Of a stretch of DNA of 64,000 nucleotides, positions 3,878 to 17,308 are shown one piece after another. The DNA lies in assembly GCA_036679645.1 (NCBI GenBank), contig JAZDCY010000056.1, positions 75,911 through 139,910 of the forward strand. Direction: 5' to 3'. Made by a program: the position numbers and the translations under genes. The notes beneath the pieces were generated by a model. It saw only the letters and a list, made by a program, of their open reading frames with translations. It did not search any database and was not told where the DNA came from. The first letter of the stretch is position 1, and the number at the start of each line of letters is the position of its first letter. The stretch is from Gemmatimonadota bacterium. Lineage in GTDB: Bacteria > Gemmatimonadota > Gemmatimonadetes > Gemmatimonadales > GWC2-71-9.

Positions 3878-5059
3878 TTAGCCGGTGGCAGGAACCGCAA
3901 TACCCGCGCCAGCCAGGCGGCGCGGCAGACGGCGCCAGGCCCGCCGTGGCGTCGCGATGGGCAGGATACCTATCTCCGGATAAGCGGCGACGAACGTAGC
4001 CACGATCGTCTGGTCGAACTGGGCCCCGCTGTTGGCGCTGAGTTCTCTCAGTGCGGTATCTGGGCTCATGCTCGGACGGTACGACCGAACGGTCGTCATC
4101 GCATCAAAGGCATCGACAACCGACACCAGCCTCGCGTTGAGGGGAATCTCCTCACCCTTCAGCCCGTCGGGCAGGCCGCGGCCGTCCATCCGCTCGTGGT
4201 GAGACCTGACCGTGCCGAGGACAGCCGGCACGTCCCGCAGAAGCGGAGCCATGATACGCGCCCCGATCACCGTGTGTTGCATGATGTAGCGGTATTCCTC
4301 CTCGCTGAGGGCGCCCTGTTTGTTCAGGATGGCCTCCGACACGCCGATCTTGCCCACGTCGTGCAGTTCCGCGCCCAGCTCCACGAGCTGCACCTCGTCT
4401 TCCTCGAAACCAAGCCGGCGGGCCACGGCCCCGGCGTATGCGGCGACCCGCGTCGAGTGGCCCTGCGTGTACTGGTCCTTGGCCTCGAGCGCGTGTACGA
4501 TGCTCTGAATGCCCTCGAGGAATAGCTCCTCAATGCGCAACCCCTGCTGCTGCACGAGTTCTGTGAGGCGGCGCTGATAACGCTGGTTTTCTAGCACCAG
4601 CCGCCGTTTCTCGGCCGCCTGAAGGACGCGGGCGTGAACCTCCTCGAGCTGAAACGGTTTGGCGATATAGTCATAGGCCCCTCGCCGCAGGCACCCGACA
4701 GCTGTCTCGACGTCGGACACGCCGGTTATCATGATCACGGCTACGTCCGGGTAGACTCGCCGCACCCGCTCGAGTAGCTCGATGCCGTTCATTTCCGGCA
4801 TCCGGACATCCGAGAGCACGACGTCGATGTCGGTGGAATCGAGGATCCCCAACGCCTGCCTCCCGGAAGAGGCTGCGATGCAGTCGTGCCCGAGTGCGCG
4901 GAGCGAGCCGAGAAGCGCGGATCGCAGCGTGGGATGGTCGTCGACGACCAGGCACTTGATCCCGGTCGCCGCCGCGCACGGGTGGGTCGGAGGTCGCGCC
5001 TTCTCAGACGCTCGCTTGCCGGTGGAAGAGCGCTCGATGTAGCTTCTCCCGTCACTCAC
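3878..5059 (-). CDS. response regulator with HD-GYP domain (c-di-GMP phosphodiesterase type)
   Basis: Receiver domain: KCLVVDDHP...DVVLSDVRMPEMNG. HD-GYP domain: HSTRVA, ELHDVGKIG, HHERMDGRGLPDGL. The ORF track extends to 5305, but that extension overlaps the divergent PLP gene. I chose the in-frame GTG at 5059, which follows GGAGG (5074..5070). The start remains uncertain. Confidence 0.8.
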   Translation of the reverse strand: MSDGRSYIERSSTGKRASEKARPPTHPCAAATGIKCLVVDDHPTLRSALLGSLRALGHDCIAASSGRQALGILDSTDIDVVLSDVRMPEMNGIELLERVRRVYPDVAVIMITGVSDVETAVGCLRRGAYDYIAKPFQLEEVHARVLQAAEKRRLVLENQRYQRRLTELVQQQGLRIEELFLEGIQSIVHALEAKDQYTQGHSTRVAAYAGAVARRLGFEEDEVQLVELGAELHDVGKIGVSEAILNKQGALSEEEYRYIMQHTVIGARIMAPLLRDVPAVLGTVRSHHERMDGRGLPDGLKGEEIPLNARLVSVVDAFDAMTTVRSYRPSMSPDTALRELSANSGAQFDQTIVATFVAAYPEIGILPIATPRRAWRRLPRRLAGAGIAVPATG

Positions 5060-5077
5060 GCTTCGGCGACCTCCTAG

Positions 5078-6253
5078 ATGGCACGCGTATACGACGAGGA
5101 TCTCCAGTTCGGCTTCAGCACGCGCAGCGTGCATGCCGGTCAGCGACCCGATGCGGTCTCGGGGGCAATCATGCCGCCCATCTATCAGACCTCGACCTAC
5201 GTCCAGGATGGTCTGGGGCGACACAAGGGATTCGAGTACGCGCGTACCCGAAACCCGACCCGGGATGTGCTGGAACGCAACATCGCGGCGTTGGAAGGTG
5301 GGCAATACGGTCTCGCCTGGTCTTCCGGTCTCGCCGCGACCGACGCGGTCCTGAAGCTATTATCGGCCGGGGACCACACTATCTGTGGCGAGAACGTCTA
5401 CGGTGGCACGCACCGGCTCATGGAGCAGGTTTTTCGGCCGCTCGGACTCACCTTCTCATTTGTAGACACGAGGGACGTCGAGCACGTTGAGGCCGCCATC
5501 GGGTCCACCACCCGGATGGTATTCATAGAGACCCCGACCAACCCGATGATGCGGCTCGCCGACCTGTCGGCCATCGGCGAGTTGACCCGCGCGAAGGGTC
5601 TCATGTTCGTGGTGGACAACACGTTTGCCACCCCGTACCTGCAGCGCCCGCTCGAGTTTGGGGCCGACCTGGTGCTGCACTCCACGACCAAGTATCTGAA
5701 CGGTCACAGCGACATGGTCGGTGGAGTGATAGTCACGTCGGACGCCGACCTGGCCGACCGGCTCGCCTTTCTCCAGAACGCGGCCGGGGCGATCCCGGGC
5801 CCGATGGACTGCTGGCTGGCACTGCGCGGCACCAAGACGCTGGCGCTGCGGATGCGCCAGCACGACAGCTCGGGGCGCCAGATCGCGGCCTGGCTGGACG
5901 CGCACCCGAAGGTGGAAACGGTCTACTACCCAGGACTCGAGAGCCATCCCCAGTACGAGCTCGCCTGCCGTCAGATGCGGGGGTTCGGCGGGATGGTATC
6001 GCTGGAACTCGGTTCGCTGGAACGGGCACGTGCCTTTGCCGAAGGCACGAAGATCTTCTCCCTGGCCGAGTCCCTGGGGGGAGTGGAGAGCCTCATTGGC
6101 CATCCTGCCAGCATGACACATGCGTCCGTGCCGAAAGAGATGCGGGAGGCCATGGGACTCACTGACGGGCTCGTCCGACTCTCGGTGGGCATCGAAGAGC
6201 TGGACGATCTGCTGGCCGATCTGGAACAGACGATCAGTGGGATGGATGGTTGA
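5078..6253 (+). CDS. Cys/Met-metabolism PLP enzyme (cystathionine gamma-synthase/lyase family)
   Basis: 391 aa. Family-typical N-terminus FSTRSVHAGQ...PIYQTSTY and PLP-lysine motif STTKYLNGHSD. Confidence 0.85.
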   Translation: MARVYDEDLQFGFSTRSVHAGQRPDAVSGAIMPPIYQTSTYVQDGLGRHKGFEYARTRNPTRDVLERNIAALEGGQYGLAWSSGLAATDAVLKLLSAGDHTICGENVYGGTHRLMEQVFRPLGLTFSFVDTRDVEHVEAAIGSTTRMVFIETPTNPMMRLADLSAIGELTRAKGLMFVVDNTFATPYLQRPLEFGADLVLHSTTKYLNGHSDMVGGVIVTSDADLADRLAFLQNAAGAIPGPMDCWLALRGTKTLALRMRQHDSSGRQIAAWLDAHPKVETVYYPGLESHPQYELACRQMRGFGGMVSLELGSLERARAFAEGTKIFSLAESLGGVESLIGHPASMTHASVPKEMREAMGLTDGLVRLSVGIEELDDLLADLEQTISGMDG

Positions 6254-6360: not shown

Positions 6361-7371
6361 ATGAGCGAAGCCACAGGTACTCCCACGGCCCGGCCGCGGG
6401 TAGTCCTGAAGGAGATCGCGCCAGACGCTTGGGAGCACTCGGCGGACCGCGCTGCGCTGAATGCGCTGCGCAAGGTTCCCGGGTTCGACGAGGCGGTCAA
6501 GCGCGTCTTTGGCTTTTTTGGCGAGCGCGGCATCCGCCTCATGTTCCAGGCGAACGCCGTCCGCGTTGGTCCCAAGCAGTTCCTCAAACTGCACCAGCTT
6601 CTGACCGAGGCGTGCGTGACCATGGACTGGGACGACCCGCCAGAGCTGTACGTCACCCAGACCCCCATGGTGAACGCCGGTGCGGTCGGGTTCGAGCATC
6701 CCTTCATTGTGATCAACTCGGGCGCGGTGAGCTTGCTCAACGACGACGAGATGCGCGTGCTGATCGGGCACGAGCTCGGGCACGTGATGAGCGGTCACGC
6801 GTTGTATCGGACGATCACGATCCTGATCCTGATGCTCGGGTTCCAGAACTTGCCCTTCCTGGCCGGTATCGCACTGATGCCCATCAAGCTGGCCCTGCTC
6901 GAGTGGTATCGGAAAAGCGAGCTATCGGCCGATCGCGCCGGCTTGCTCGCGAGCCAGGACCCTGACTCCTCGAAACGGCTGTTCCTCAAGTTCGCCGGTG
7001 GCGGTGACATGGAGCAGATGAACCTCGAGGCCTTCATGGAGCAGGCCCAGGAGTACGAAGAGAGTGGTGGCCCCCTCGATGCCATCTACAAGATCCTCAA
7101 CACCATGGGGATGACCCATCCGTTCAGCACGCTGCGCGCTGCTGAGGTGCAGCGGTGGATCGAGTCGGGAACGTACGAGGAGATCCTGGGCGGGACCTAC
7201 GAGCGTCGCGGGGCTGAGCAACAACAGGCGCACTCGTACGCGGGCGACCTGAAGGATGCCGCCACCCACTACGGGCAGGAAGTGAAGGACGTGGCGTCAT
7301 CAGTCACCGACGCCGCCAAGCGGGCGGCCGAAGCATTCACCTCGGCCTTCAAGGACTCCCGCAAGGAGTGA
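6361..7371 (+). CDS. M48-family zinc metallopeptidase
   Basis: 336 aa. HExxH in LIGHELGHVMSGHALY, followed by a hydrophobic segment and ELSADRAG, as in M48/HtpX-like peptidases. Confidence 0.8.
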   Translation: MSEATGTPTARPRVVLKEIAPDAWEHSADRAALNALRKVPGFDEAVKRVFGFFGERGIRLMFQANAVRVGPKQFLKLHQLLTEACVTMDWDDPPELYVTQTPMVNAGAVGFEHPFIVINSGAVSLLNDDEMRVLIGHELGHVMSGHALYRTITILILMLGFQNLPFLAGIALMPIKLALLEWYRKSELSADRAGLLASQDPDSSKRLFLKFAGGGDMEQMNLEAFMEQAQEYEESGGPLDAIYKILNTMGMTHPFSTLRAAEVQRWIESGTYEEILGGTYERRGAEQQQAHSYAGDLKDAATHYGQEVKDVASSVTDAAKRAAEAFTSAFKDSRKE

Positions 7372-8639
7372 GGGTCCTAGTTGTCGGCGGGGGCGGCCGC
7401 GAGCACGCTCTCTGCTGGGCGCTGCGGTCCGGCGCTGAGATCTTCTGCGCTCCCGGCAACGCCGGTACCGACAACCACGCCACGAATCTGGCCGTAGACG
7501 TCTCCGATCACGATGCGGTGATCGAGACGATCGTTTCCCACCACATAGATCTCACTGTAGTGGGCCCCGAGGCGCCGCTGGCGGCGGGGCTCGCCGACCG
7601 TCTGGCGGCCGCCGGCCGGGCGGTGTTCGGGCCCTCGGCAGGAGCTGCGCAGATCGAGGCATCAAAAGCATTCGCCAAGAGGGTCATGACGGACGCCGGC
7701 GTTCCAACGGCGGCCGCGGCGGTCTTTACGAACGCAGATAAGGCCATCGGATACATCAGAGGACATGATGAGCCCTTGGTCGTGAAGGCGTCCGGGCTCG
7801 CAGGTGGCAAGGGTGCCGTCGTCTGCCAGACGCGGGCGGAAGCCATCGCCGCCGCCACCGCCATGTTCGGTGGCCGCTTCGGGGACGCCGGAGCGGAGGT
7901 CGTCGTGGAAGATCTTCTCGTGGGCGAGGAACTGTCGGTCTTCGCGCTGACCGACGGCGAGCAGTGCTGTCTCCTCCCCGCGTCGCAGGATCACAAGCGG
8001 ATCGGCGAAGGTGACACGGGACCCAACACCGGCGGGATGGGGGCCTACGCGCCCGTGTCGATCGCGACCCCGGATCTCATGGCGCGGGTTGAGCGAGAGG
8101 TCATCCTCCCTACCTTACGGCAACTGAGCGAGCTGGGCACCCCGTATCGCGGCGTGCTGTACGCCGGCCTCATGATCTCGCCGGCCGGCGACCTGTCCGT
8201 GATCGAGTTCAATTGCCGATTCGGCGATCCCGAGACGCAGGTAGTCCTGCCGGTCATCGAGGGCGACCTGCTGGATCAACTCTGGCGTATCGGCGCAGGC
8301 GAGGACTGGACCCCGCCGAAGCTTCCCGCGGCACGAGCGGCAGTCACGACGGTCGTGGCCGCGGCCGGGTATCCGGACACACCTGAGAAGGGCGCCGTCA
8401 TCAACATCCCGCGAATCACCCCGGACGACACTGTGCTCTTTCACGCTGGCACCGGTAAGGACGCGGACGGAACGCTGCGCGTCTCCGGCGGGCGGGTACT
8501 GTGTGCCACCGGGTTCGGACCGACCGTGGCGCAGGCGGCTGAAGCGAGTCGCACGCTCGCAGACGCGATCGAATTCGAGGGCGCGCAATACCGGCGCGAC
8601 ATCGCCTGGCGAGAGGTCGCCCGTGCCGGAGTTGCCTGA
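7368..8639 (+). CDS. purD: phosphoribosylamine--glycine ligase
   Basis: 423 aa with an MRVLVVGGGGREHAL N-terminus and PurD ATP-grasp core. GTGA overlap with the upstream stop. Confidence 0.95.
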   Translation: MRVLVVGGGGREHALCWALRSGAEIFCAPGNAGTDNHATNLAVDVSDHDAVIETIVSHHIDLTVVGPEAPLAAGLADRLAAAGRAVFGPSAGAAQIEASKAFAKRVMTDAGVPTAAAAVFTNADKAIGYIRGHDEPLVVKASGLAGGKGAVVCQTRAEAIAAATAMFGGRFGDAGAEVVVEDLLVGEELSVFALTDGEQCCLLPASQDHKRIGEGDTGPNTGGMGAYAPVSIATPDLMARVEREVILPTLRQLSELGTPYRGVLYAGLMISPAGDLSVIEFNCRFGDPETQVVLPVIEGDLLDQLWRIGAGEDWTPPKLPAARAAVTTVVAAAGYPDTPEKGAVINIPRITPDDTVLFHAGTGKDADGTLRVSGGRVLCATGFGPTVAQAAEASRTLADAIEFEGAQYRRDIAWREVARAGVA

Positions 8640-9474
8640 AGTCGAGACCATCGTTCGCGACCTCGCCCCACGCATCACCGGCCGTACGCTCACCAACCCC
8701 AGGCTCCATCACACCAACGTGCTCCGCCGCGTGTCGCGCGCCCGCTTACTGCGTACGCTGCGACGAAATGTGATCGCCGGCATCTCACGCCGGGCGAAGC
8801 ACATGGTGATACTGCTCGAGAGCGGGCACCGCGTGGTCATTCAGCCACGGATGACCGGCTCGCTGGTGGTCTACGAGCGGCGTCTGCGAGCGGCCGAGCG
8901 CCGTTACGCGGTGCTGCAGGCCGGCCTGGGGGCGGGCCGGTCTCTGGTCTTTAGCGACATACGCCGTCTCGGCACGATAGAACTCTTGGATGAGAAGGGG
9001 TGGCAGTCCTATACTGCTGGCATTGGGCCCGAACCACTCGACGACGATTTCGACGTCGCTGCCTTTCGAGCGCGGATTCACGGGAGCCGTCAGGCGATCA
9101 AGAAAGTGCTCATGGACCAGCGAAAAATCGCCGGGGTGGGAAACATCTACGCCAACGAGGCGCTCTTCCGCGCCGGCATCGATCCTTCGCGACGCGCCGA
9201 CCGTGTGGACCGCGCTGCGGCTACGCGCCTCCATGGGGCCGTGCGCGAGGTGCTGTCCGAAGCCCTCGCCGCCCGCGGAACCACGCTCCGCGACTACAGG
9301 ACCGGCACCGGCGGCAAGGGGTCTTTCCAATTCGCCCTCCAGGTGTACGGCCGCGCCGGGGAGCCGTGCGTGCGTTGCGGCACCGCGCTGGCGGTTACGC
9401 ACGAGATCGACGGTCGGCAGACGACCTTCTGCTGGCGCTGTCAGGGTGGTCGGAGTCCGACGGAGCGCACGTGA
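8623..9474 (+). CDS. mutM: formamidopyrimidine-DNA glycosylase
   Basis: The in-frame GTG at 8623 gives VPELPEVETIVRDL, the Fpg catalytic N-terminus. There is a C-terminal zinc finger CVRCG...FCWRCQ. The ORF-track start at 8503 is an extension overlapping purD. Confidence 0.9.
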   Translation: MPELPEVETIVRDLAPRITGRTLTNPRLHHTNVLRRVSRARLLRTLRRNVIAGISRRAKHMVILLESGHRVVIQPRMTGSLVVYERRLRAAERRYAVLQAGLGAGRSLVFSDIRRLGTIELLDEKGWQSYTAGIGPEPLDDDFDVAAFRARIHGSRQAIKKVLMDQRKIAGVGNIYANEALFRAGIDPSRRADRVDRAAATRLHGAVREVLSEALAARGTTLRDYRTGTGGKGSFQFALQVYGRAGEPCVRCGTALAVTHEIDGRQTTFCWRCQGGRSPTERT

Positions 9475-10490
9475 AGGTAGCCGTCGTGTTCGATACTCCC
9501 AGCGCGGGGTGGACGCACGACGATTTCATCAAGGAGGTAGTCGCCCAAGTCGAGGAACCCGAGTATGAGATCGCCGAAGCGTTGCTCGCTTACGAGTACG
9601 ACGTCCGGCTGATCGGTGTTCACGACGATCTCCATGCGCTCGCGGAGCAACTCGCCGAGTACGATCCCGATCTCGTGTTCAACTGCGCGGAGGGATTCCA
9701 CGAGCAACCCAACCTAGACTACGTTTTTCCCGCCATCTTCGAAGCCGAGGGATACCGGTACACCGGCGCCCCCCCGGCTGGGCTGTTGTTGACGCGGAAC
9801 AAGGCGATGCACAAGAAGGTGCTCGCGTACCACGGCATCAGCGTGCCGGCGTTCAGGACATGGCGACTGACAGAGAACATCGATGGCCCACCAGACGATC
9901 TGCGGTTCCCGTTGATCGTCAAGCCGCTCGGGGAAGACGCGTCCGCCGGTATCTCTCAGGCGTCGGTCGTGTCCACGCCTGACGCGCTGGCAGAGCGCGT
10001 CGCGTTCGTTCACGAGAAATTCTCGCAGCCCGCGATTGCCGAAGAGTTCGTCGAGGGACGTGAGTTGTACGTGAGCATGGTTGGCAACGGTGACGGGGTC
10101 CAGATCCTCCCCATCATCGAGATGGTCTTCGACAAGGAGTTGACGAAACCCGAGGAACGGATCGCCACGAGGAGCGCTAAGTGGAATGTGCCGTACCGTA
10201 CGCGGAAGGGCATAAAGAACGTGTTTGCACGACCGCTCGCGCAGGTTACACAGCGGCGCATCGACGAAGTCTGTCGCACGGCGTTTCGTGCGCTGTGGCT
10301 CCACGACTACGCGCGATTCGACGTCCGCGTGAGTCCCGACAACGAGGTCTGGGTCATCGAGGCAAATGCGAATCCGTTCATCAGCTTCGGACATGACATG
10401 GCCAACTCCGCGGAGAAAGCGGGTATGGACTACTACGCCTTCATCGACCGGATCGTCCGGGAAGCGATGAGCCGGTATGAAGCGGCGTAG
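9471..10490 (+). CDS. ATP-grasp ligase, D-alanine--D-alanine ligase-like family
   Basis: GTG at 9471 (GTGA overlap with the mutM stop) gives VKVAVVFDTPS. ATP-grasp motifs: FPLIVKPLGEDASAGIS, EEFVEGRELYVSMVGN, ARFDVRV...VWVIEANANP. Confidence 0.75.
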   Translation: MKVAVVFDTPSAGWTHDDFIKEVVAQVEEPEYEIAEALLAYEYDVRLIGVHDDLHALAEQLAEYDPDLVFNCAEGFHEQPNLDYVFPAIFEAEGYRYTGAPPAGLLLTRNKAMHKKVLAYHGISVPAFRTWRLTENIDGPPDDLRFPLIVKPLGEDASAGISQASVVSTPDALAERVAFVHEKFSQPAIAEEFVEGRELYVSMVGNGDGVQILPIIEMVFDKELTKPEERIATRSAKWNVPYRTRKGIKNVFARPLAQVTQRRIDEVCRTAFRALWLHDYARFDVRVSPDNEVWVIEANANPFISFGHDMANSAEKAGMDYYAFIDRIVREAMSRYEAA

Positions 10491-11484
10491 GCGGCGGCGT
10501 GCGCCGTTCCCGCATCCCGAGCTGCGCTGCGAGTGCGGCGAGGAGCTGAAGCGCTACTGGCCCCACTGCCCCCGCTGTGCACGACGGCAACTCTGGCGGG
10601 ACGCGGGCGGCGTGACCGGCGCAGAGTGCTACAAGTGCGGCTGGGTCGTGTCCGACGCCGCATGGTTCTGCCCCTGGTGCGGCACAGACATCTTCGAGGA
10701 AGGAGTGTCGGTCGAGCATCCGTTGAAGGCCCCGAAGGGCTTTCGCTTCTCGGCCCAGTGCGACTGGCGCTGCGGGGGCGGGGTCGAGCACCCCATGTCG
10801 TACTGTCCCTGGTGTGGACGCGAACAGGAATGGAGTGATGAGGAATTCGATGGGGAGTGCCCGCACTGCGATCGCGGAGTCAACGACTGGATGGACCACT
10901 GTCCCTGGTGCGGCCAGGACGCCACCGGACAAGTACTCATTCCCCGCGCCTTACGGAACGTGCGCCAGTTGCTGCGCGTGTCTGGCATCAAGAATTGGGG
11001 ATATCGCGTGCTGCTGCGGCCGGGTATGTCCGGTGTCGACCCCAAGGCGCCCAAGATCATCGAGATCGAGCGTGCGTACGTTACCGGACACCAACGACGC
11101 GATGAAATCGAGTGGTCCATGCTCGTCGGGCTCATCTGTCACGAGCTGGGCCACAGTTTTCTCTTCCACCACTGGCGCTGGGCGCGGTCACCGGATTTCG
11201 TCAAGGCGTTCGGTGAGGTGGACAAGCGCTATCGTGTTCGCGACGAAGCGTGGGTAGACTTCCAGCGGCGGCGCGTCACGACCACGCGACCCAACTTCGT
11301 CACGTCCTACGCCGCCAATCACCCGGAAGAAGACTTCGCCGAGACGTTCCGGTTCTACGTTACCCGACGCGGGAAGATGCGCGAGTTGCTCGCCGAGATG
11401 GGACAGAAACGGAAGGCTGTCGTAGTGTACGAGAAATTCCTCGCGCTCCATCACTACATCCGGTGGCTACGGGGCTGGCGATGA
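10477..11484 (+). CDS. four tandem zinc ribbons fused to a predicted HExxH zinc metallopeptidase domain
   Basis: 335 aa with four CxxC(or CxC)-x10-11-CxxC units: CECG..CPRC, CYKCG..CPWCG, CDWRCG..CPWCG, CPHCD..CPWCG. These are followed by ICHELGHSF and HPEEDFAETF. The start overlaps the ATP-grasp stop by 14 nt. Confidence 0.7.
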   Translation: MKRRRRRRAPFPHPELRCECGEELKRYWPHCPRCARRQLWRDAGGVTGAECYKCGWVVSDAAWFCPWCGTDIFEEGVSVEHPLKAPKGFRFSAQCDWRCGGGVEHPMSYCPWCGREQEWSDEEFDGECPHCDRGVNDWMDHCPWCGQDATGQVLIPRALRNVRQLLRVSGIKNWGYRVLLRPGMSGVDPKAPKIIEIERAYVTGHQRRDEIEWSMLVGLICHELGHSFLFHHWRWARSPDFVKAFGEVDKRYRVRDEAWVDFQRRRVTTTRPNFVTSYAANHPEEDFAETFRFYVTRRGKMRELLAEMGQKRKAVVVYEKFLALHHYIRWLRGWR

Positions 11485-12578
11485 GCGCACCGGTGCTCCC
11501 GCTCGTTGATACCGGCCGCCTGAAGCGGCGGGTCGCGGCACTCGCAGAGAACCGGCCCGGCATCTACCGGATGCTCGATCCGACTGGACAGGTGATCTAC
11601 GTCGGCAAGGCCAAGCGCGTTCGTGCGCGCCTGCTGTCGTATTTCAACGCAAGCTATCCCGAGGACAAGGCCGCCCGTATCCTGTTCGCCACAGATGACA
11701 TCCAGTGGAACTACACCGCGTCGGAGTTCGCGGCCCTCCTTGGCGAGTTGCGGCAGATCCAACGCCATCGTCCTCGTTTCAACGTGCGCATGAACCGCCC
11801 GCGCCGGGTTGCATTTGTCAAGATTTCGGGCACCCCGGCGCCGAAACTGTTCGTTGGGAACGCGCCCACATCACCGGACGTGCGCCACTACGGGCCGTTC
11901 ATGTCGGCGAGCCGTCTCAAAGACGCTATTCGCGAGCTGAACCTGCAACTCGGACTGCGAGACTGCGCCCTGAACATGCCGATCACGTATTCCGAGCAGG
12001 GAGACCTCTTCACGTCGGACCACCCGGCAGGCTGCCTGCGGTATGAGCTGGGGAGCTGTACGGGACCATGCGGCGGTTTCGTGAGCGAGCCGGACTACAT
12101 GCAGCGTGTCGAGACCGCGCTCGCGTTTCTCGAGGGCCGCGCGATCTCGCCCATCGACGCGATCGTGCAGCAGATGAACCGAGCGAGCCGAAAGAAGGAC
12201 TACGAGCTGGCAGCGCGTTGGCGTGACCGGTTCGAGGCTTTGGAGTGGCTGTTTGCCGAGGGCAACCGCGTGCGCGCAGCGATCGACGGATTGAGCTTCG
12301 TGTACACCGACACGGGCACGTATGGCGACGATCGGGTCTACGTTATCAAACGAGCGACCGTACGAGCCAGCGCACCGGCACCCCACACGCCGATCGAGAC
12401 CGCAGCCTTTCGCGCGCTAGTGGCAGCGCACACAGGCTCGGAGACCGGTGCTGGACCGCTCCCCCCCAACGCAATCGACGAGGTCGTGCTCTTGTTGAGT
12501 TGGTTCCGGCGCCATCCCTCGGCTCTGCGCCACACGGTACCGCTGGAGGCGTGGCTCGATCAGCACGCCGAGGCGTGA
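11481..12578 (+). CDS. GIY-YIG nuclease, UvrC N-terminal-half homolog (Cho-like)
   Basis: ATG at 11481 (ATGA overlap) gives MSAPVLPL...PGIYRMLDPTGQVIYVGKAKRVRARLLSYF, the GIY-YIG motif. A UVR-like helix (ELAARWRDRFEALEWL) follows. At 366 aa it lacks the C-terminal UvrC endonuclease/HhH half. Confidence 0.75.
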   Translation: MSAPVLPLVDTGRLKRRVAALAENRPGIYRMLDPTGQVIYVGKAKRVRARLLSYFNASYPEDKAARILFATDDIQWNYTASEFAALLGELRQIQRHRPRFNVRMNRPRRVAFVKISGTPAPKLFVGNAPTSPDVRHYGPFMSASRLKDAIRELNLQLGLRDCALNMPITYSEQGDLFTSDHPAGCLRYELGSCTGPCGGFVSEPDYMQRVETALAFLEGRAISPIDAIVQQMNRASRKKDYELAARWRDRFEALEWLFAEGNRVRAAIDGLSFVYTDTGTYGDDRVYVIKRATVRASAPAPHTPIETAAFRALVAAHTGSETGAGPLPPNAIDEVVLLLSWFRRHPSALRHTVPLEAWLDQHAEA

Positions 12579-12588
12579 GACACGTGCC

Positions 12589-13566
12589 ATGCTGATCTCG
12601 TCCCTGCTCGCGATCGCCGGATTGGCGCTGCTCGTGGGTGGAGGACACTATCTCGTCGAGGGAGCAACGCGGCTGTCGCTGCGTGCGCGAATCTCGCCGA
12701 CCGTGATCGGCCTGACGGTCGTGGCACTCGGGACGAGCATGCCCGAATTGGCTGTGAGCCTCGAGGCGGCGATCCGCGGCAATACCGACATCTCGTACGC
12801 CAACGTCGTCGGGTCCAACATCTTCAACGTCGCCGCCGTACTCGGGATCGCCGCACTGATCGCGCCGATACCCGTCCAGGGACGGATGCTCAAGATCGAG
12901 TATCCGTTCATGATCGCGGTCCTGATTCTTTGTCTTGTGATGGCAGGCAACGACACGGTGAGCCACCTCGATGGTGCCATCTTCGTCTTGGTGCTCGGCG
13001 CATCGCTCATCGCCCTGATTCGCTGGTCGCGATCGCAACCCCCCGATGAAGAGACCATCGAACTGGAGCGGGAGTACGCCGCGCACGTCGGCCTGACGGA
13101 TCGGCGCGCGGTCGCCCGAGCATGGCTCGTCAACATAGTCATGATCGCGGCCGGGATCGCTCTGCTGGCCGGCGGTGCTGCGCTCCTGATTCGGGGTGCG
13201 ATCGATATTGCGACACGCTTTCACGTCACACATCGGGTCATCGGGCTCACCCTGGTGGCCGGTGGTACGAGCCTTCCCGAACTCGCCGCCAGCGTCACCG
13301 CGGCGGTTAAGGGACGCCCCGGCCTCGCACTTGGCAACATCGTGGGTTCCAACATCTTCAACGTGCTGTCGATATTGGGCATCACGTCACTGATCCGCGA
13401 GATTCCGGTAAACCCGACCGCCGTATCACTCGACAACTGGGTGATGGTTGGCCTCGCGCTGCTGCTGTTCGTGTTCCTTGCCGTGGGCAAACGACTTACG
13501 CGTATCGAGGGAGGCGTAATGTTGGCGCTGTTCGTGGCGTATATGACCCGGGTCGTTGCGACGTAG
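12589..13566 (+). CDS. Ca2+/cation antiporter (CaCA family, YrbG-like)
   Basis: 325 aa, multi-TM, with duplicated alpha-repeat motifs GTSMPELAVS and GTSLPELAAS. Confidence 0.85.
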   Translation: MLISSLLAIAGLALLVGGGHYLVEGATRLSLRARISPTVIGLTVVALGTSMPELAVSLEAAIRGNTDISYANVVGSNIFNVAAVLGIAALIAPIPVQGRMLKIEYPFMIAVLILCLVMAGNDTVSHLDGAIFVLVLGASLIALIRWSRSQPPDEETIELEREYAAHVGLTDRRAVARAWLVNIVMIAAGIALLAGGAALLIRGAIDIATRFHVTHRVIGLTLVAGGTSLPELAASVTAAVKGRPGLALGNIVGSNIFNVLSILGITSLIREIPVNPTAVSLDNWVMVGLALLLFVFLAVGKRLTRIEGGVMLALFVAYMTRVVAT

Positions 13567-14127: not shown

Positions 14128-17100
14128 ATGATCCACCGACGCCTCTCGCCGGTCGTGACCGTGTTCCTCGCGGCAGCGGCGACCTCCGCGCACGCCCAGG
14201 TCAGCCAACCTCTCGATTCCACCACGATGAGCGCATTCCGGTGGCGAGCCATCGGCCCAGCCTCTATGAGCGGCCGCATCACGGACGTCGAGGGCATTCC
14301 GAGCCCTTCGAAGACGTTCTTCATAGCGGCGGCAAGCGGTGGCATCTGGAAGACGACCAATGCCGGCACAACGTTCCGCCCCGTGTTCGATCACGAGCGC
14401 GTGATCTCCATGGGCGACATCGCGATCGCCCCGAGCGACACGATGATCGTCTGGGCCGGGACGGGCGAGGAGGATTCCCGCAACTCGATCTCGCCGGGCG
14501 GCGGGATCTACAAGTCGATCGACGGTGGCCTCACGTGGACCCTGATGGGACTCGAGGCCACCCAGCAGATCGGGCGCATCGTGATTCACCCAACGAATCC
14601 AGACGTCGTCTACGTCGCGGCTCTGGGCCACGTTTGGGGTCCAAATCCTGAACGCGGTTTGTACAAGACGACCGACGGCGGCGAGACCTGGGAGTTGATC
14701 AAGTTCATCAGCGACCGGGCGGGCTTTGTGGATGTTGCGATGCATCCCAACAACCCGGACATCCTGTTCGCCTCGAGCTGGGAACGGGTACGCGGTCCGT
14801 ATTTCCTACGGAGTGGCGGACCTGGGAGCGCCTTGTGGAAGACGACCGACGGTGGGGCCAACTGGACCGAGGTTCGCGGGAACGGTTTCCCCGAGACCAT
14901 GCTCGGACGCATTGGGATCGCCATCGCGCCGAGCAACCCGGACATCGTGTACGCCCTGGTCGAGGCCGATTCCACCGAGGGCGGGGGTGGGTTGCTGTCA
15001 GGACTTTATCGCTCCGAAGACGCTGGGGGCTCATGGGAGCGCATGAGCGAGCGCGATTCGCGGCCGTTCTACTACTCGCAGGTCCGCGTCGACCCGCAGA
15101 ACCCCGATCGCGTCTACTGGTCGTCCGGCCCGGTGAATTTCTCCGATGACGGCGGCAAGACCGTCCGCAACGCGACCGTAGGGATTCACGTCGACCACCA
15201 TGCCATGTGGATCGACCCCACCGACCCGGAACACTTCATCGTCGGGAACGACGGTGGCGTGTCGCAGACATGGGACCGTGGCGGAAACTACCGCACGCTA
15301 AACGTCATGCCGCTCGGCCAGTTCTACGCGGTCAGTTACAACATGGAGGTACCCTACCGCGTCTGCGGCGGCTTGCAGGACAACGGCTCGTGGTGCGGGC
15401 CGAGTCGGCGCTCCCGTGGTGCCATCACAAACGAGCACTGGTCCTACATCAGCGGCGGGGACGCGCCTGAATCTGGCAACCGGCAATCAGTCGCGGCTGC
15501 AGAAGCCCGACTGGCGGCAGCGGTACACCACGTACGAAGATTCCGTCATCATCGAACTGCCGGATACGACGCAGCGGCCCAATCGCCAGCAGCGTCGTCG
15601 TATCGAGAGCTTCCGCCAGCAGCAGCACGCCGATTCGGTCAACATGGCGTTGCGCTGGAACTGGAGCACGCCCTTTTTCATCTCCGAGCACTCGCCCACT
15701 ACGTTCTACGCCGGTGCGAGTCGCGTGCTGAAGTCCACGAACCGCGGTGAGGGGCTCTATCCCATTTCACCCGACCTCACGACACAGGACGCCGAGCGCA
15801 TTCGCATCAGCACCGAGACGACCGGTGGGATCACGCGAGACGTCACGAACGCCGAAACGCATAGCACGATAACCGCGCTGGCGGAATCGCCGATCCGTCC
15901 GGGACTGCTCTATGCCGGCACAGACGACGGGAACGTCTGGCTCACGCGAAATGATGGCGGTGACTGGGACGAATTAACCGGTCGGTTCCCCGGCGTTCCG
16001 GCAAAGACGTGGGTGAGCCGTATCGAGCCGTCGCATCACGACTCGGCGGCATTTTATGTCTCGTTCGACGGTCACCGGGAGAACGATTTTGCGCCGTACG
16101 TGTACGTGACGCACGATTTTGGCGCGACGTTCCGGTCGATCGCCAACGATCTTCCAACTGGCGGCCCCAATTTCATTCACGTCATCCGGGAAGATCCGCA
16201 CAATGCCGATCTCCTGTTTGTCGGCACCGACGTCGGCGTCTATGTATCGACAGATCGCGGCGCGTCGTGGCAGCGTTTCATGGAAGGTCTCCCGACGGTG
16301 CCCGTGCACGATCTCAAGATTCACCCACGGGATCGCGAGCTGATCGCGGGGACGCACGGGCGCTCGATCTGGATCGTCGATATCGCAACTCTCGAGCAGC
16401 TCACCAACGAGGTGCTGGCGGCGGACGCCTACCTGTTTGAGCCGAAGACCGCGTATCAGTACAACTCACCGCCGCGGGGCGGGCAGAACTACGGTCACGA
16501 CGTCTTCGAAGCCCAAAGCCCCCGGTATGGGGCGGAGATCGTGTACCGTCGCACGAGCGGGGAGCGCCGCACGCAGACACCCATCGTCATCACGAACGTG
16601 ATGGGCGATACGGTGCAGACGCTGCAGGGACCCGGCACGCCGGGTATCCATCGGGTGACGTGGAACTTTCGCGGTGCGCCGGCGCCCAGGGACCCGCTCT
16701 CGCCATCCCAGCAGCGCGACTCGGTGTTGTTCCTGCGGCGGCTCGATGTCGTGTTCGACTCCGTCGCAGAGGCCGGGACACCGCGCCAGATGCTGGATCG
16801 GATCCGGAACGGTATCGCCTCCGGCAACACGGACCAGCTGCGCCGCCTTGCGGGCTTTGGTGGCGGGGGTGGCGGCGGTGCCTTTGGCCGTGGGCAGAGG
16901 AATCCAGGTCAGTTCAATGAGCGACCCGGTGAGTCGCGGGCCCGCGGGCAACGTGGACCGGGCGCGCGCGGCGGCGGTCAGGGCGGTGCTCGTGCAGCGG
17001 GAGGTCAGGGTGAACCTTCGGGAGGTGCCGGCGGCGGGTTTGCGGGTGCGGGTCGCGAGATGATGCGGGACATCTTCCGGCTGTTCCGTCGGGATCGAGA

Positions 17101-17308
17101 ACTGCGCCGGTACAGTTCCGCGTTCGGCCTTGGTGGGTTCGGATTCGGGGGCCGCGGGCGCGGGGGCGGCGGCGGCTCGTTGGTCGAGACCGGTGACTAT
17201 CTCGTGAGCGTCACGATCGACGACGAGACGATGCGGCGCGTGCTGCGCGTGGAGCGCGTGTCCGGTGGCCGCAACGGGGGCGTGGCGTTCGAGGAGGAGG
17301 AGCGATAG
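14128..17308 (+). pseudogene. sortilin/VPS10-type BNR (Asp-box) beta-propeller protein, reading frame broken near 15460 (pseudogene or assembly error)
   Basis: ORFs 14128..15750 and 15416..17308 carry consecutive parts of one family. The first has a signal peptide, GGIWKTTNAGTTF and GGLQDNGSWCGP...ISGGD. The second has RLNLATGNQSRLQKPDW...VLKSTNRGE...VHDLKIHPRD. The total length of 3181 nt is not a multiple of 3. Confidence 0.7.

Follow-up and report, generated by a model that had tools for sequence, protein, structure and literature searches.

A predicted Ddl-fold ATP-grasp ligase and a four-zinc-ribbon peptidase form a conserved gene pair within a compact gene chain of Gemmatimonadales

We analysed a 64,000-nucleotide stretch of contig JAZDCY010000056.1 from a Gemmatimonadota bacterium (the window). 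In this stretch six genes, coding for an M48-family peptidase, PurD, Fpg, an ATP-grasp enzyme, a zinc-ribbon metallopeptidase and a Cho-like nuclease, overlap one after another. It is well supported by our comparison with related loci that the ATP-grasp and zinc-ribbon peptidase genes are the unit, and that their linkage to the two repair genes, fpg and the nuclease gene, is synteny by descent. We lean, with a slight preference, towards a housekeeping operon that is compact, probably transcribed as a whole and found in one lineage of Gemmatimonadales, and that encloses a self-contained ATP-grasp/peptidase cassette, with the ligase as accessory partner. In the mechanism we propose, the functional unit would consist of the two proteins, with the peptidase as core component. 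The ribbon module of the peptidase would bring it to a protein or peptide target. The accessory ligase would tune the peptidase step by joining an amino acid or a peptide either to this target or to the peptidase. The cassette is conserved across the sampled Gemmatimonadales like core enzymes (~50-75% identity). Gemmatimonadales are abundant soil bacteria of which few genes have been studied.

Related loci were obtained by two scans. Alignment of peptidase homologues against species-representative genomes gave 80 loci, and a metagenome scan gave 80 more, all of Gemmatimonadales type; the full set holds 163 related loci, labelled nearly all as Gemmatimonadales or Gemmatimonadota. The eight window proteins were placed on these loci by tblastn, with fetched flanks of at most 10 kb, and 107 loci have both flanks adequate. 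Three arrangements are found. In arrangement A the full string is present as in the window, with the ATP-grasp gene, fpg and the nuclease gene (21/107 loci). Arrangement B consists of the ATP-grasp and peptidase genes alone, with neither repair gene in the fetched flanks (79/107), and arrangement C is the string minus the ATP-grasp gene, with fpg and the nuclease gene kept (6/107). One more of the 107 loci has fpg alone, without the ATP-grasp or nuclease gene. Of the 141 loci whose upstream sequence is long enough, 129 have the ATP-grasp gene directly upstream of the peptidase gene; an overlap of the two is seen in 123/125 relatives. Of the overlaps in the chain, this is the only one maintained in all lineages. 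When the peptidase sequences are placed on a neighbour-joining tree, the loci of arrangement B make up a clade of their own and those of A and C fall on one side, and thus the repair-gene linkage traces to a single lineage. The neighbours of B loci are variable, including glycosyltransferases, a mechanosensitive channel, ornithine carbamoyltransferase, kinases, MoxR, an FAD oxidoreductase and an MFS transporter, none of them general. Clustering of the flanking open reading frames (ORFs) of 115 stand-alone loci finds no conserved third partner; the sublineage-specific neighbours in this clustering are the FAD oxidoreductase, an AlaX-like protein, the MFS transporter and MoxR.

The sequence-only reading of this DNA had suggested, from the linkage of the pair to fpg and the nuclease gene, a damage-responsive protein-modification module. 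The survey speaks against this. That reading had itself named scattering of the four genes in close relatives as a refutation, and most related loci show it: in the 79/107 loci of arrangement B the fetched flanks of the pair hold neither repair gene. The four-gene order, complete in arrangement A, occurs only in loci on one side of the peptidase tree. Overlap is also not evidence of a shared pathway, because the same conserved chain ties purine synthesis (purD), a membrane-type protease (M48) and DNA repair together as closely as the ligase and the peptidase. For that suggestion the outcome is mainly negative: the overlaps and the repair adjacency reflect operon compaction and shared ancestry. 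Fpg and the nuclease gene look like ordinary repair genes that flank the cassette in this lineage, and that they adjoin it by descent is well supported. A cooperation of Fpg, ligase, peptidase and nuclease, for example with the zincin as a protease for DNA-protein crosslinks that acts on trapped Fpg before a Cho-type incision, is very improbable in our judgement. Such a module would fit the fpg/(ligase)/peptidase/nuclease order, which is kept with its overlaps throughout one lineage and there survives ligase loss in 6/7 loci. The basic catalytic half of the peptidase (pI 10.5) and its Trp-rich ribbons are compatible with nucleic-acid binding as well. However, the linkage is limited to a single part of the tree, and the peptidase has no Pfam match to the SprT/WLM families at E up to 10 and no Spartan/Wss1 fold in its top 50 PDB fold matches, its matches being zincins of the lethal factor (LF)/PPEP-1 type. 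A SprT/WLM-type crosslink protease was rejected, as neither sequence nor fold supports it. The nuclease gene itself is truncated in one relative (L167, 8192-8938), where it is reduced to 248 aa with UvrC_M only, no GIY-YIG domain is called and the Na/Ca exchanger gene is absent. This suggests that the nuclease is dispensable in that organism.

Both repair proteins can be classified from their profile matches. Fpg scores above the equivalog cut-offs of NF002211 (258.9 vs 212 bits) and TIGR00577 (249.7 vs 203.3), starts with (M)PELPEVE, carries the Pfam domains Fapy_DNA_glyco, H2TH and zf-FPG_IleRS, and shows the C-terminal CxxC...CxxC zinc finger in its translation; by these marks it is a true MutM. 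The nuclease (365 aa) has a GIY-YIG domain matching UvrC in the PDB (1yd6, E 1.5e-14) and a Pfam UVR motif (E 1.4e-7). The UvrC model TIGR00194 is matched only over profile positions 8-228 of 574 and scores 148.6 vs 285.45 bits, below the level of a full UvrC, and the E. coli-type Cho model NF007833 gives 57.6 vs 367 bits. The nuclease matches best the GIY-YIG part of actinobacterial fusions with a DEDD exonuclease (157 vs 454 bits), and its orthologues carry PF27096 UvrC_M. Like Cho, it has the UvrC-type GIY-YIG domain without the C-terminal endonuclease and HhH half of UvrC. It differs in retaining the UVR (UvrB-interaction) motif; this region of UvrC is not known from E. coli Cho. As judged from its profiles, the nuclease is Cho-like by architecture (UvrC N-half only) and is not a Cho orthologue.

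Within the pair we infer from the sequences an asymmetric dependence, in which the peptidase works without the ligase and the ligase is not seen without the peptidase. Seventeen loci have no ATP-grasp gene and yet an intact peptidase gene, 16 of them of arrangement C (L015, L017, L021, L026, L043, L044, L065, L067, L079, L095, L105, L111, L117, L120, L130 and L162) and one of B type (L127). The gap left by the ATP-grasp gene is clean, lying between fpg (in L127, the MFS transporter gene) and the peptidase gene, and tree position together with neighbouring genes indicates ~6 independent losses. In all 17 loci the peptidase gene is free of stop codons and its motifs and cysteines are conserved; for the 16 loci of arrangement C, identity to the peptidase of the window is unchanged (64-74%). 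On the side of the ligase, 5/5 independently sampled ATP-grasp orthologues adjoin the peptidase; nearly all loci were reached via the peptidase, so that ligase-only loci are under-sampled beyond these five. Both cassette genes are as conserved as purD and fpg (medians of 68% and 69% for the pair vs 64% and 68% for purD and fpg), which looks like housekeeping and not like a conflict system. PADLOC gives no matches for the ATP-grasp protein, the peptidase, the nuclease or the M48 protein, no plasmid copies of the cassette were found, and no viral contigs carry the relatives of the ribbon module (with JAMM, C39 and other heads) that were used as query. A defence or conflict system was rejected on these grounds together with the housekeeping-like conservation.

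The ATP-grasp protein is placed in the Ddl clade of the ATP-grasp superfamily by its modelled fold and its conserved ATP/Mg residues. Its AlphaFold (AF2) model has a pLDDT of 93, and the best Foldseek matches of this model are all Ddl or Van ligases (E 1e-24, TM ~0.75), with which it shares the three-domain fold and the residues for ATP, Mg and the acyl phosphate. Unlike the Ddl/VanA family, it has only ~22% identity to these matches and stays below every Ddl and Van cut-off, its D-Ala site is altered, and in the sampled orthologues it is paired with a zinc-ribbon zincin. The best Ddl model, NF002378, gives 98.8 bits vs a cut-off of 243, TIGR01205 (Ddl) 83 vs 245.65, the Van models 20-53 vs 495-775 and the RimK model TIGR00768 19.7 vs 143.4; in Pfam, Dala_Dala_lig_N is not detected. 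The classification by profile models that the sequence-only reading had proposed puts the protein outside both Ddl and RimK. We compared 12 aligned orthologues with E. coli DdlB, whose sequence was entered by hand. K97, K144, E180, E187, R255, D257, E270 and N272 of DdlB, the residues for ATP, Mg and the acyl phosphate, are all kept. Among the tested D-Ala-binding residues (E15, E68, S150, Y216, G276, S281 and L282) only the equivalent of E15 is retained: E68L, S150A, G276F, S281H and L282D are found in all or nearly all 12 orthologues, and Y216 aligns to Ile in a region of uncertain alignment. The GEDG motif and the N-terminal glycine-rich loop are missing, a ~12-residue insertion is present near the omega loop, and the family has its own GHD motif, which is nearly invariant. 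Because the ATP/Mg/acyl-phosphate residues are kept while the D-Ala residues are replaced, the protein should be an active amide ligase which joins substrates other than two D-alanines.

If the enzyme were instead the housekeeping D-Ala-D-Ala ligase of the organism, its adjacency to the peptidase gene would be trivial. The best matches are indeed all Ddl, and no second ddl is present in the 64-kb window or any fetched locus. We give this explanation almost no weight, in view of the deficit in bits against the best Ddl model, the replaced GEDG loop and D-Ala-site residues (S150, G276, S281, L282), the undetected N-terminal domain and the clean absence of the gene from the 17 loci, which is unexpected for an essential cell-wall enzyme. 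The model scores, the residues of the active site and the repeated loss of the gene led us to reject a housekeeping Ddl, which the sequence-only reading had listed as a refuting case. A ribosomally synthesised and post-translationally modified peptide (RiPP)/graspetide system was rejected too, since overlapping large genes flank the pair in the window lineage and there is no room for a precursor. Elsewhere no small ORF conserved beside the pair was seen in the ORF clustering (minimum 120 aa).

The partner of the ligase scores 42.1 bits vs a cut-off of 27 for Peptidase_Mx (PF15887). The family combining four ribbons with Peptidase_Mx is essentially one full-length cluster at 50% identity among 1.8 billion representative proteins, and identity is 60-75% across the Gemmatimonadales orthologues listed. 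Pfam DZR matches four stretches of the ribbon module (Table 1), in which 15/16 Cys are invariant in 38 orthologues and C18 is nearly so. HExxH is present in 163/163 full-length copies, and EDF[AS]E in 161/163, with EDFAETF kept in the distant homologues P0287 and P0297. The HPxEDFAE helix probably bears the third zinc ligand, of the gluzincin type. The structure model is good for the catalytic half. In the fold search this model matches anthrax lethal factor, PPEP-1 and minigluzincins, though only weakly (E no better than 0.03), which fits an HExxH…E gluzincin, and a weak ATLF match is found in Pfam. With Peptidase_Mx/Mx1 (PF15887, PF15890) and the M34-type gluzincins (anthrax lethal factor, PPEP-1) the protein shares the HExxH motif and the downstream Glu-bearing helix. 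It differs from them by the N-terminal four-ribbon module, which is unique to its group. VanX-type families are absent from its Pfam matches. TIGR04549, the model for SusCD-associated lipoproteins, gives 30.4 vs 75 bits, and unlike those lipoproteins the window peptidase has no signal peptide or lipobox apparent by eye. Its C-terminus ends in ...LRGWR, with no acidic acceptor tail. These features define it as a predicted cytoplasmic HExxH…E zincin with four zinc ribbons as its N-terminal half.

The whole four-ribbon module, with its KGF linker, is shared by distant matches whose C-terminal domains differ, and 14/16 ribbon Cys are invariant over ten such proteins. The module is joined to Prok-JAB/JAMM in P0354 and P0356 (intact HxHP) and P0344 (HNHP), to a Peptidase_C39-like domain in P0323, to a weak nucleoside deoxyribosyltransferase-like region in P0295 and to a hydrophobic, possibly membrane-spanning tail in P0311, with P0370 looking similar. 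In P0331 the Peptidase_Mx head is fused to an AstE/AspA-type deacylase. Because three unrelated peptidase folds carry one ribbon module, the ribbons would recognise a protein or peptide target, onto which they most likely dock the hydrolase; the three folds are a clue to a shared target. We found no description of this domain-swapping module in the literature (titles and abstracts), and no paper on a Ddl-clade ligase with a four-zinc-ribbon Peptidase_Mx partner was apparent there. A broader possibility, which we hold only tentatively and think unlikely in its full extent, is a new protein/peptide modification system in which the Ddl-fold ligase would write an amino-acid or peptide mark on the target or on the peptidase, and the four-ribbon module would serve more generally, in diverse bacteria, to direct zincin, JAMM or C39-type hydrolases to targets of this class. 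If the ligase does modify a protein or peptide, the Ddl clade would be extended beyond small-molecule chemistry, and bacteria would provide a further case of modification by a ligase and a peptidase, as known for RimK and tubulin.

RimK with its partner proteases and the tubulin ligases TTL/TTLL with carboxypeptidases are antagonistic systems. The window pair resembles them in that a peptide-bond-forming ATP-grasp enzyme is encoded beside a metallopeptidase and translationally coupled to it. It differs in that the ligase is of the Ddl clade and not of the RimK/TTL clade, the peptidase is a Peptidase_Mx gluzincin and not an M14 enzyme, and the peptidase outlives the loss of the ligase. The sequence-only reading had noted that the pair recalls antagonistic tailing systems. 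The conserved, translationally coupled pair is borne out by the survey, and the antagonism is weakened by ligase loss with the peptidase intact and by the low score against RimK. A writer/eraser tagging system, in which the ligase would extend a protein by an amino-acid or peptide tail that the zincin would remove, is decidedly unlikely. The tight coupling, the ribbon module on JAMM isopeptidase-type and C39-like heads, the deacylase fusion of the Peptidase_Mx head and the contrast of a basic peptidase domain with an acidic ligase (pI 4.9) would agree with it. A pure eraser, however, is expected to decay without its writer, and the 17 loci retain an intact peptidase of unchanged conservation; the RimK model is also unmatched.

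The pairing of an ATP-grasp ligase with a peptidase is a known theme, with RimK, TTL and VanA/VanX as cases (PMC4431377). In the window the ligase is accompanied by a zinc-ribbon zincin of the HExxH type and not by a VanX-type D,D-dipeptidase. The pair could nevertheless act on a small molecule, the ATP-grasp enzyme making a dipeptide or another small peptide metabolite, for instance an osmolyte, a storage peptide or an altered precursor of the cell wall, and the zincin hydrolysing it. VanA/VanX, cyanophycin synthetase/cyanophycinase and the NAGGN ligase/peptidase clusters are models of this kind. The nearest relatives in sequence and fold (Ddl, VanA, VanG) all ligate small amino-acid substrates, the equivalent of E15, the D-Ala1-binding Glu, is kept together with the transition-state Arg (R255), and conservation is housekeeping-like. 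An MFS transporter gene also lies 26 nt upstream of the ATP-grasp gene on the same strand in 26 loci of one sublineage. We regard this explanation as unlikely: four conserved zinc ribbons are odd on a dipeptidase, and elsewhere they sit on peptidases of the JAMM and C39-like kinds, whose substrates are proteins or peptides. Scores for the Van and Ddl models are far under the cut-offs, no third biosynthetic gene is conserved, and a peptidase that stays intact without the ligase is unexpected for a dedicated degrader of the ligase product.

In the amino-group carrier system LysX/LysW/LysK, an ATP-grasp ligase works with a zinc-ribbon protein and a product-releasing metallopeptidase. The window pair is like it in bringing together an ATP-grasp ligase, zinc ribbons and a metallopeptidase. 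Unlike in that system, the four ribbons and the peptidase are one polypeptide, an acidic C-terminal tail is missing, no lysine or arginine biosynthesis genes are adjacent, and the ligase is not RimK/LysX-like.

Several points weigh against the reading as a self-contained cassette within a housekeeping operon. Repeated ligase loss shows that the two genes are not strictly interdependent, and the ligase might be relocated elsewhere in the ligase-less genomes. In the window lineage it is the fpg/peptidase/nuclease order that outlasts the ligase (the 6/7 loci given above); neutral synteny explains this survival, with room left for some repair link. The loci are non-independent samples and the peptidase tree is midpoint-rooted. 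The distant full-length homologues P0287 and P0297 are singletons without an ATP-grasp neighbour, and the pairing may be specific to Gemmatimonadales. The mechanism, that is, the substrate, product and interaction of the pair, is what we infer. The gene for P0287 (L163 2129-10987, from an AT-rich organism) follows, in the same orientation, three genes for dynamin-like GTPases and several small ORFs.

The genes of the chain and the motifs of the peptidase are listed in Table 1. Read base by base, the M48/purD junction is GTGA at 7368-7371. The purD/fpg junction is a 17-nt overlap at 8623-8639, with the fpg GTG at 8623 and the purD stop TGA at 8637-8639, and the fpg/ATP-grasp junction is GTGA at 9471-9474. 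The ATP-grasp/peptidase junction is a 14-nt overlap at 10477-10490, with the peptidase ATG at 10477 and the ATP-grasp TAG at 10488-10490, and the peptidase/nuclease junction is ATGA at 11481-11484. The start sites of the chain genes match the N-termini of their homologues. Every overlap that the sequence-only reading had described, as well as its upstream extension through purD and the M48 gene, is present, making a chain of six genes, and its naming of Fpg, a Ddl-like ATP-grasp enzyme, a zinc-ribbon metallopeptidase and a Cho-like nuclease agrees with the profile and domain matches.

Table 1. Genes of the overlapping chain, adjoining genes and peptidase motifs, with their positions in the window
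Feature	Position	Strand	Remarks
metC/metB-like Cys/Met-metabolism pyridoxal phosphate (PLP) enzyme	5078..6253	+	Pfam Cys_Met_Meta_PP, E 2.2e-154; upstream syntenic neighbour
M48-family zinc peptidase	6361..7371	+	Pfam Peptidase_M48, E 7.7e-22; first gene of the chain
purD (phosphoribosylamine-glycine ligase)	7368..8639	+	Pfam GARS_N/A/C; housekeeping gene within the chain
fpg/mutM, formamidopyrimidine-DNA glycosylase/AP lyase	8623..9474	+	NCBIfam NF002211, TIGR00577
Ddl-fold ATP-grasp, predicted amide ligase	9471..10490	+	Pfam Dala_Dala_lig_C, E 2.7e-19
Four-zinc-ribbon + Peptidase_Mx gluzincin (predicted)	10477..11484	+	Pfam DZR, Peptidase_Mx
Four-zinc-ribbon N-terminal module, residues 18-145	10528..10911	+	16 Cys as eight CxxC-type pairs, CPWCG knuckles, KGF linker
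HELGH zinc-binding/catalytic motif, residues 222-226	11140..11154	+	H222, E223, G225, H226 invariant in 38 orthologues
HPxEDFAE helix, residues 282-289	11320..11343	+	6/8 positions invariant in 38 orthologues; A288 in at least 90%
UvrC N-terminal-half (Cho-like) GIY-YIG nuclease with UVR motif	11481..12578	+	PDB 1yd6, Pfam UVR
Na+/Ca2+ exchanger family transporter	12589..13566	+	Pfam Na_Ca_ex, E 2.6e-63; 10-nt gap after the nuclease gene

The overlaps of the chain are non-random and recur in relatives. M48 and purD overlap by 4 nt in 27/30 relatives and purD and fpg by 17 nt in 27/29. The fpg and ATP-grasp genes overlap in 21/21, by 4 nt in 14/21, the larger values probably arising from start assignment, and the peptidase and nuclease genes overlap in 27/29. 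Among the co-directional junctions listed for the window, ~4/28 overlap, as a rough guide to the base rate: the crude gene call behind it, based on GC at third codon positions (GC3), missed fpg and the peptidase gene, so that most chain junctions are unscored. Five overlaps in succession are unusual against this base rate, even if the genome has many short overlaps. No terminator-like sites lie between the chain genes; two lie within coding sequence, a count no higher than in shuffled sequence. The chain is probably transcribed as one unit, as the conserved overlaps and the lack of intergenic terminator-like sites indirectly suggest. Rfam and tRNA scans of the window gave no matches.

Just upstream of the chain, metC is separated from it by ~80-110 nt and is syntenic in every full-chain locus that reaches that far; downstream, the Na/Ca exchanger gene comes after the nuclease gene in most loci of the window lineage. 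A gene for a response-regulator receiver with an HD-GYP-type HD domain occupies 3878-5305 (-), its longest ORF overlapping the metC start by ~230 nt. Relatives carry glmS/glmM in its place, and thus metC is the left edge of the synteny block.

Some loci have features of their own. In the sublineage with the upstream MFS transporter gene (L136-type, e.g. L127 4464-7146), a deoxyhypusine-synthase-like gene stands together with that gene directly upstream of the pair on the same strand, and the two could extend the operon in this lineage only. Some loci and proteins that hold the pair, or just one gene of it, bear the labels Kofleriaceae, Haliangiales, Myxococcales, Methylomirabilota or Armatimonadota (L057, L071, L073, L082; L055; P0146). 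Mis-binning or mislabelling is likely for L057, L071 and L073, because they are nested inside the Gemmatimonadales clade of the peptidase tree. In P0252 and P0255 the C-terminal part of the ATP-grasp protein is joined to peptidase sequence via garbled stretches, and both look like frameshifted gene calls over the overlapping junction and not like true fusions.

Further downstream in the window, two ORFs of 540 and 630 aa at 14128-17308 (+) overlap by ~335 nt in different frames, and both match Sortilin-Vps10/BNR. The end of the first and the beginning of the second seem to be read in the wrong frame. The two are probably one sortilin-like protein of ~1040 aa broken by a frameshift at ~15.42-15.75 kb, either a sequencing error or a pseudogene.

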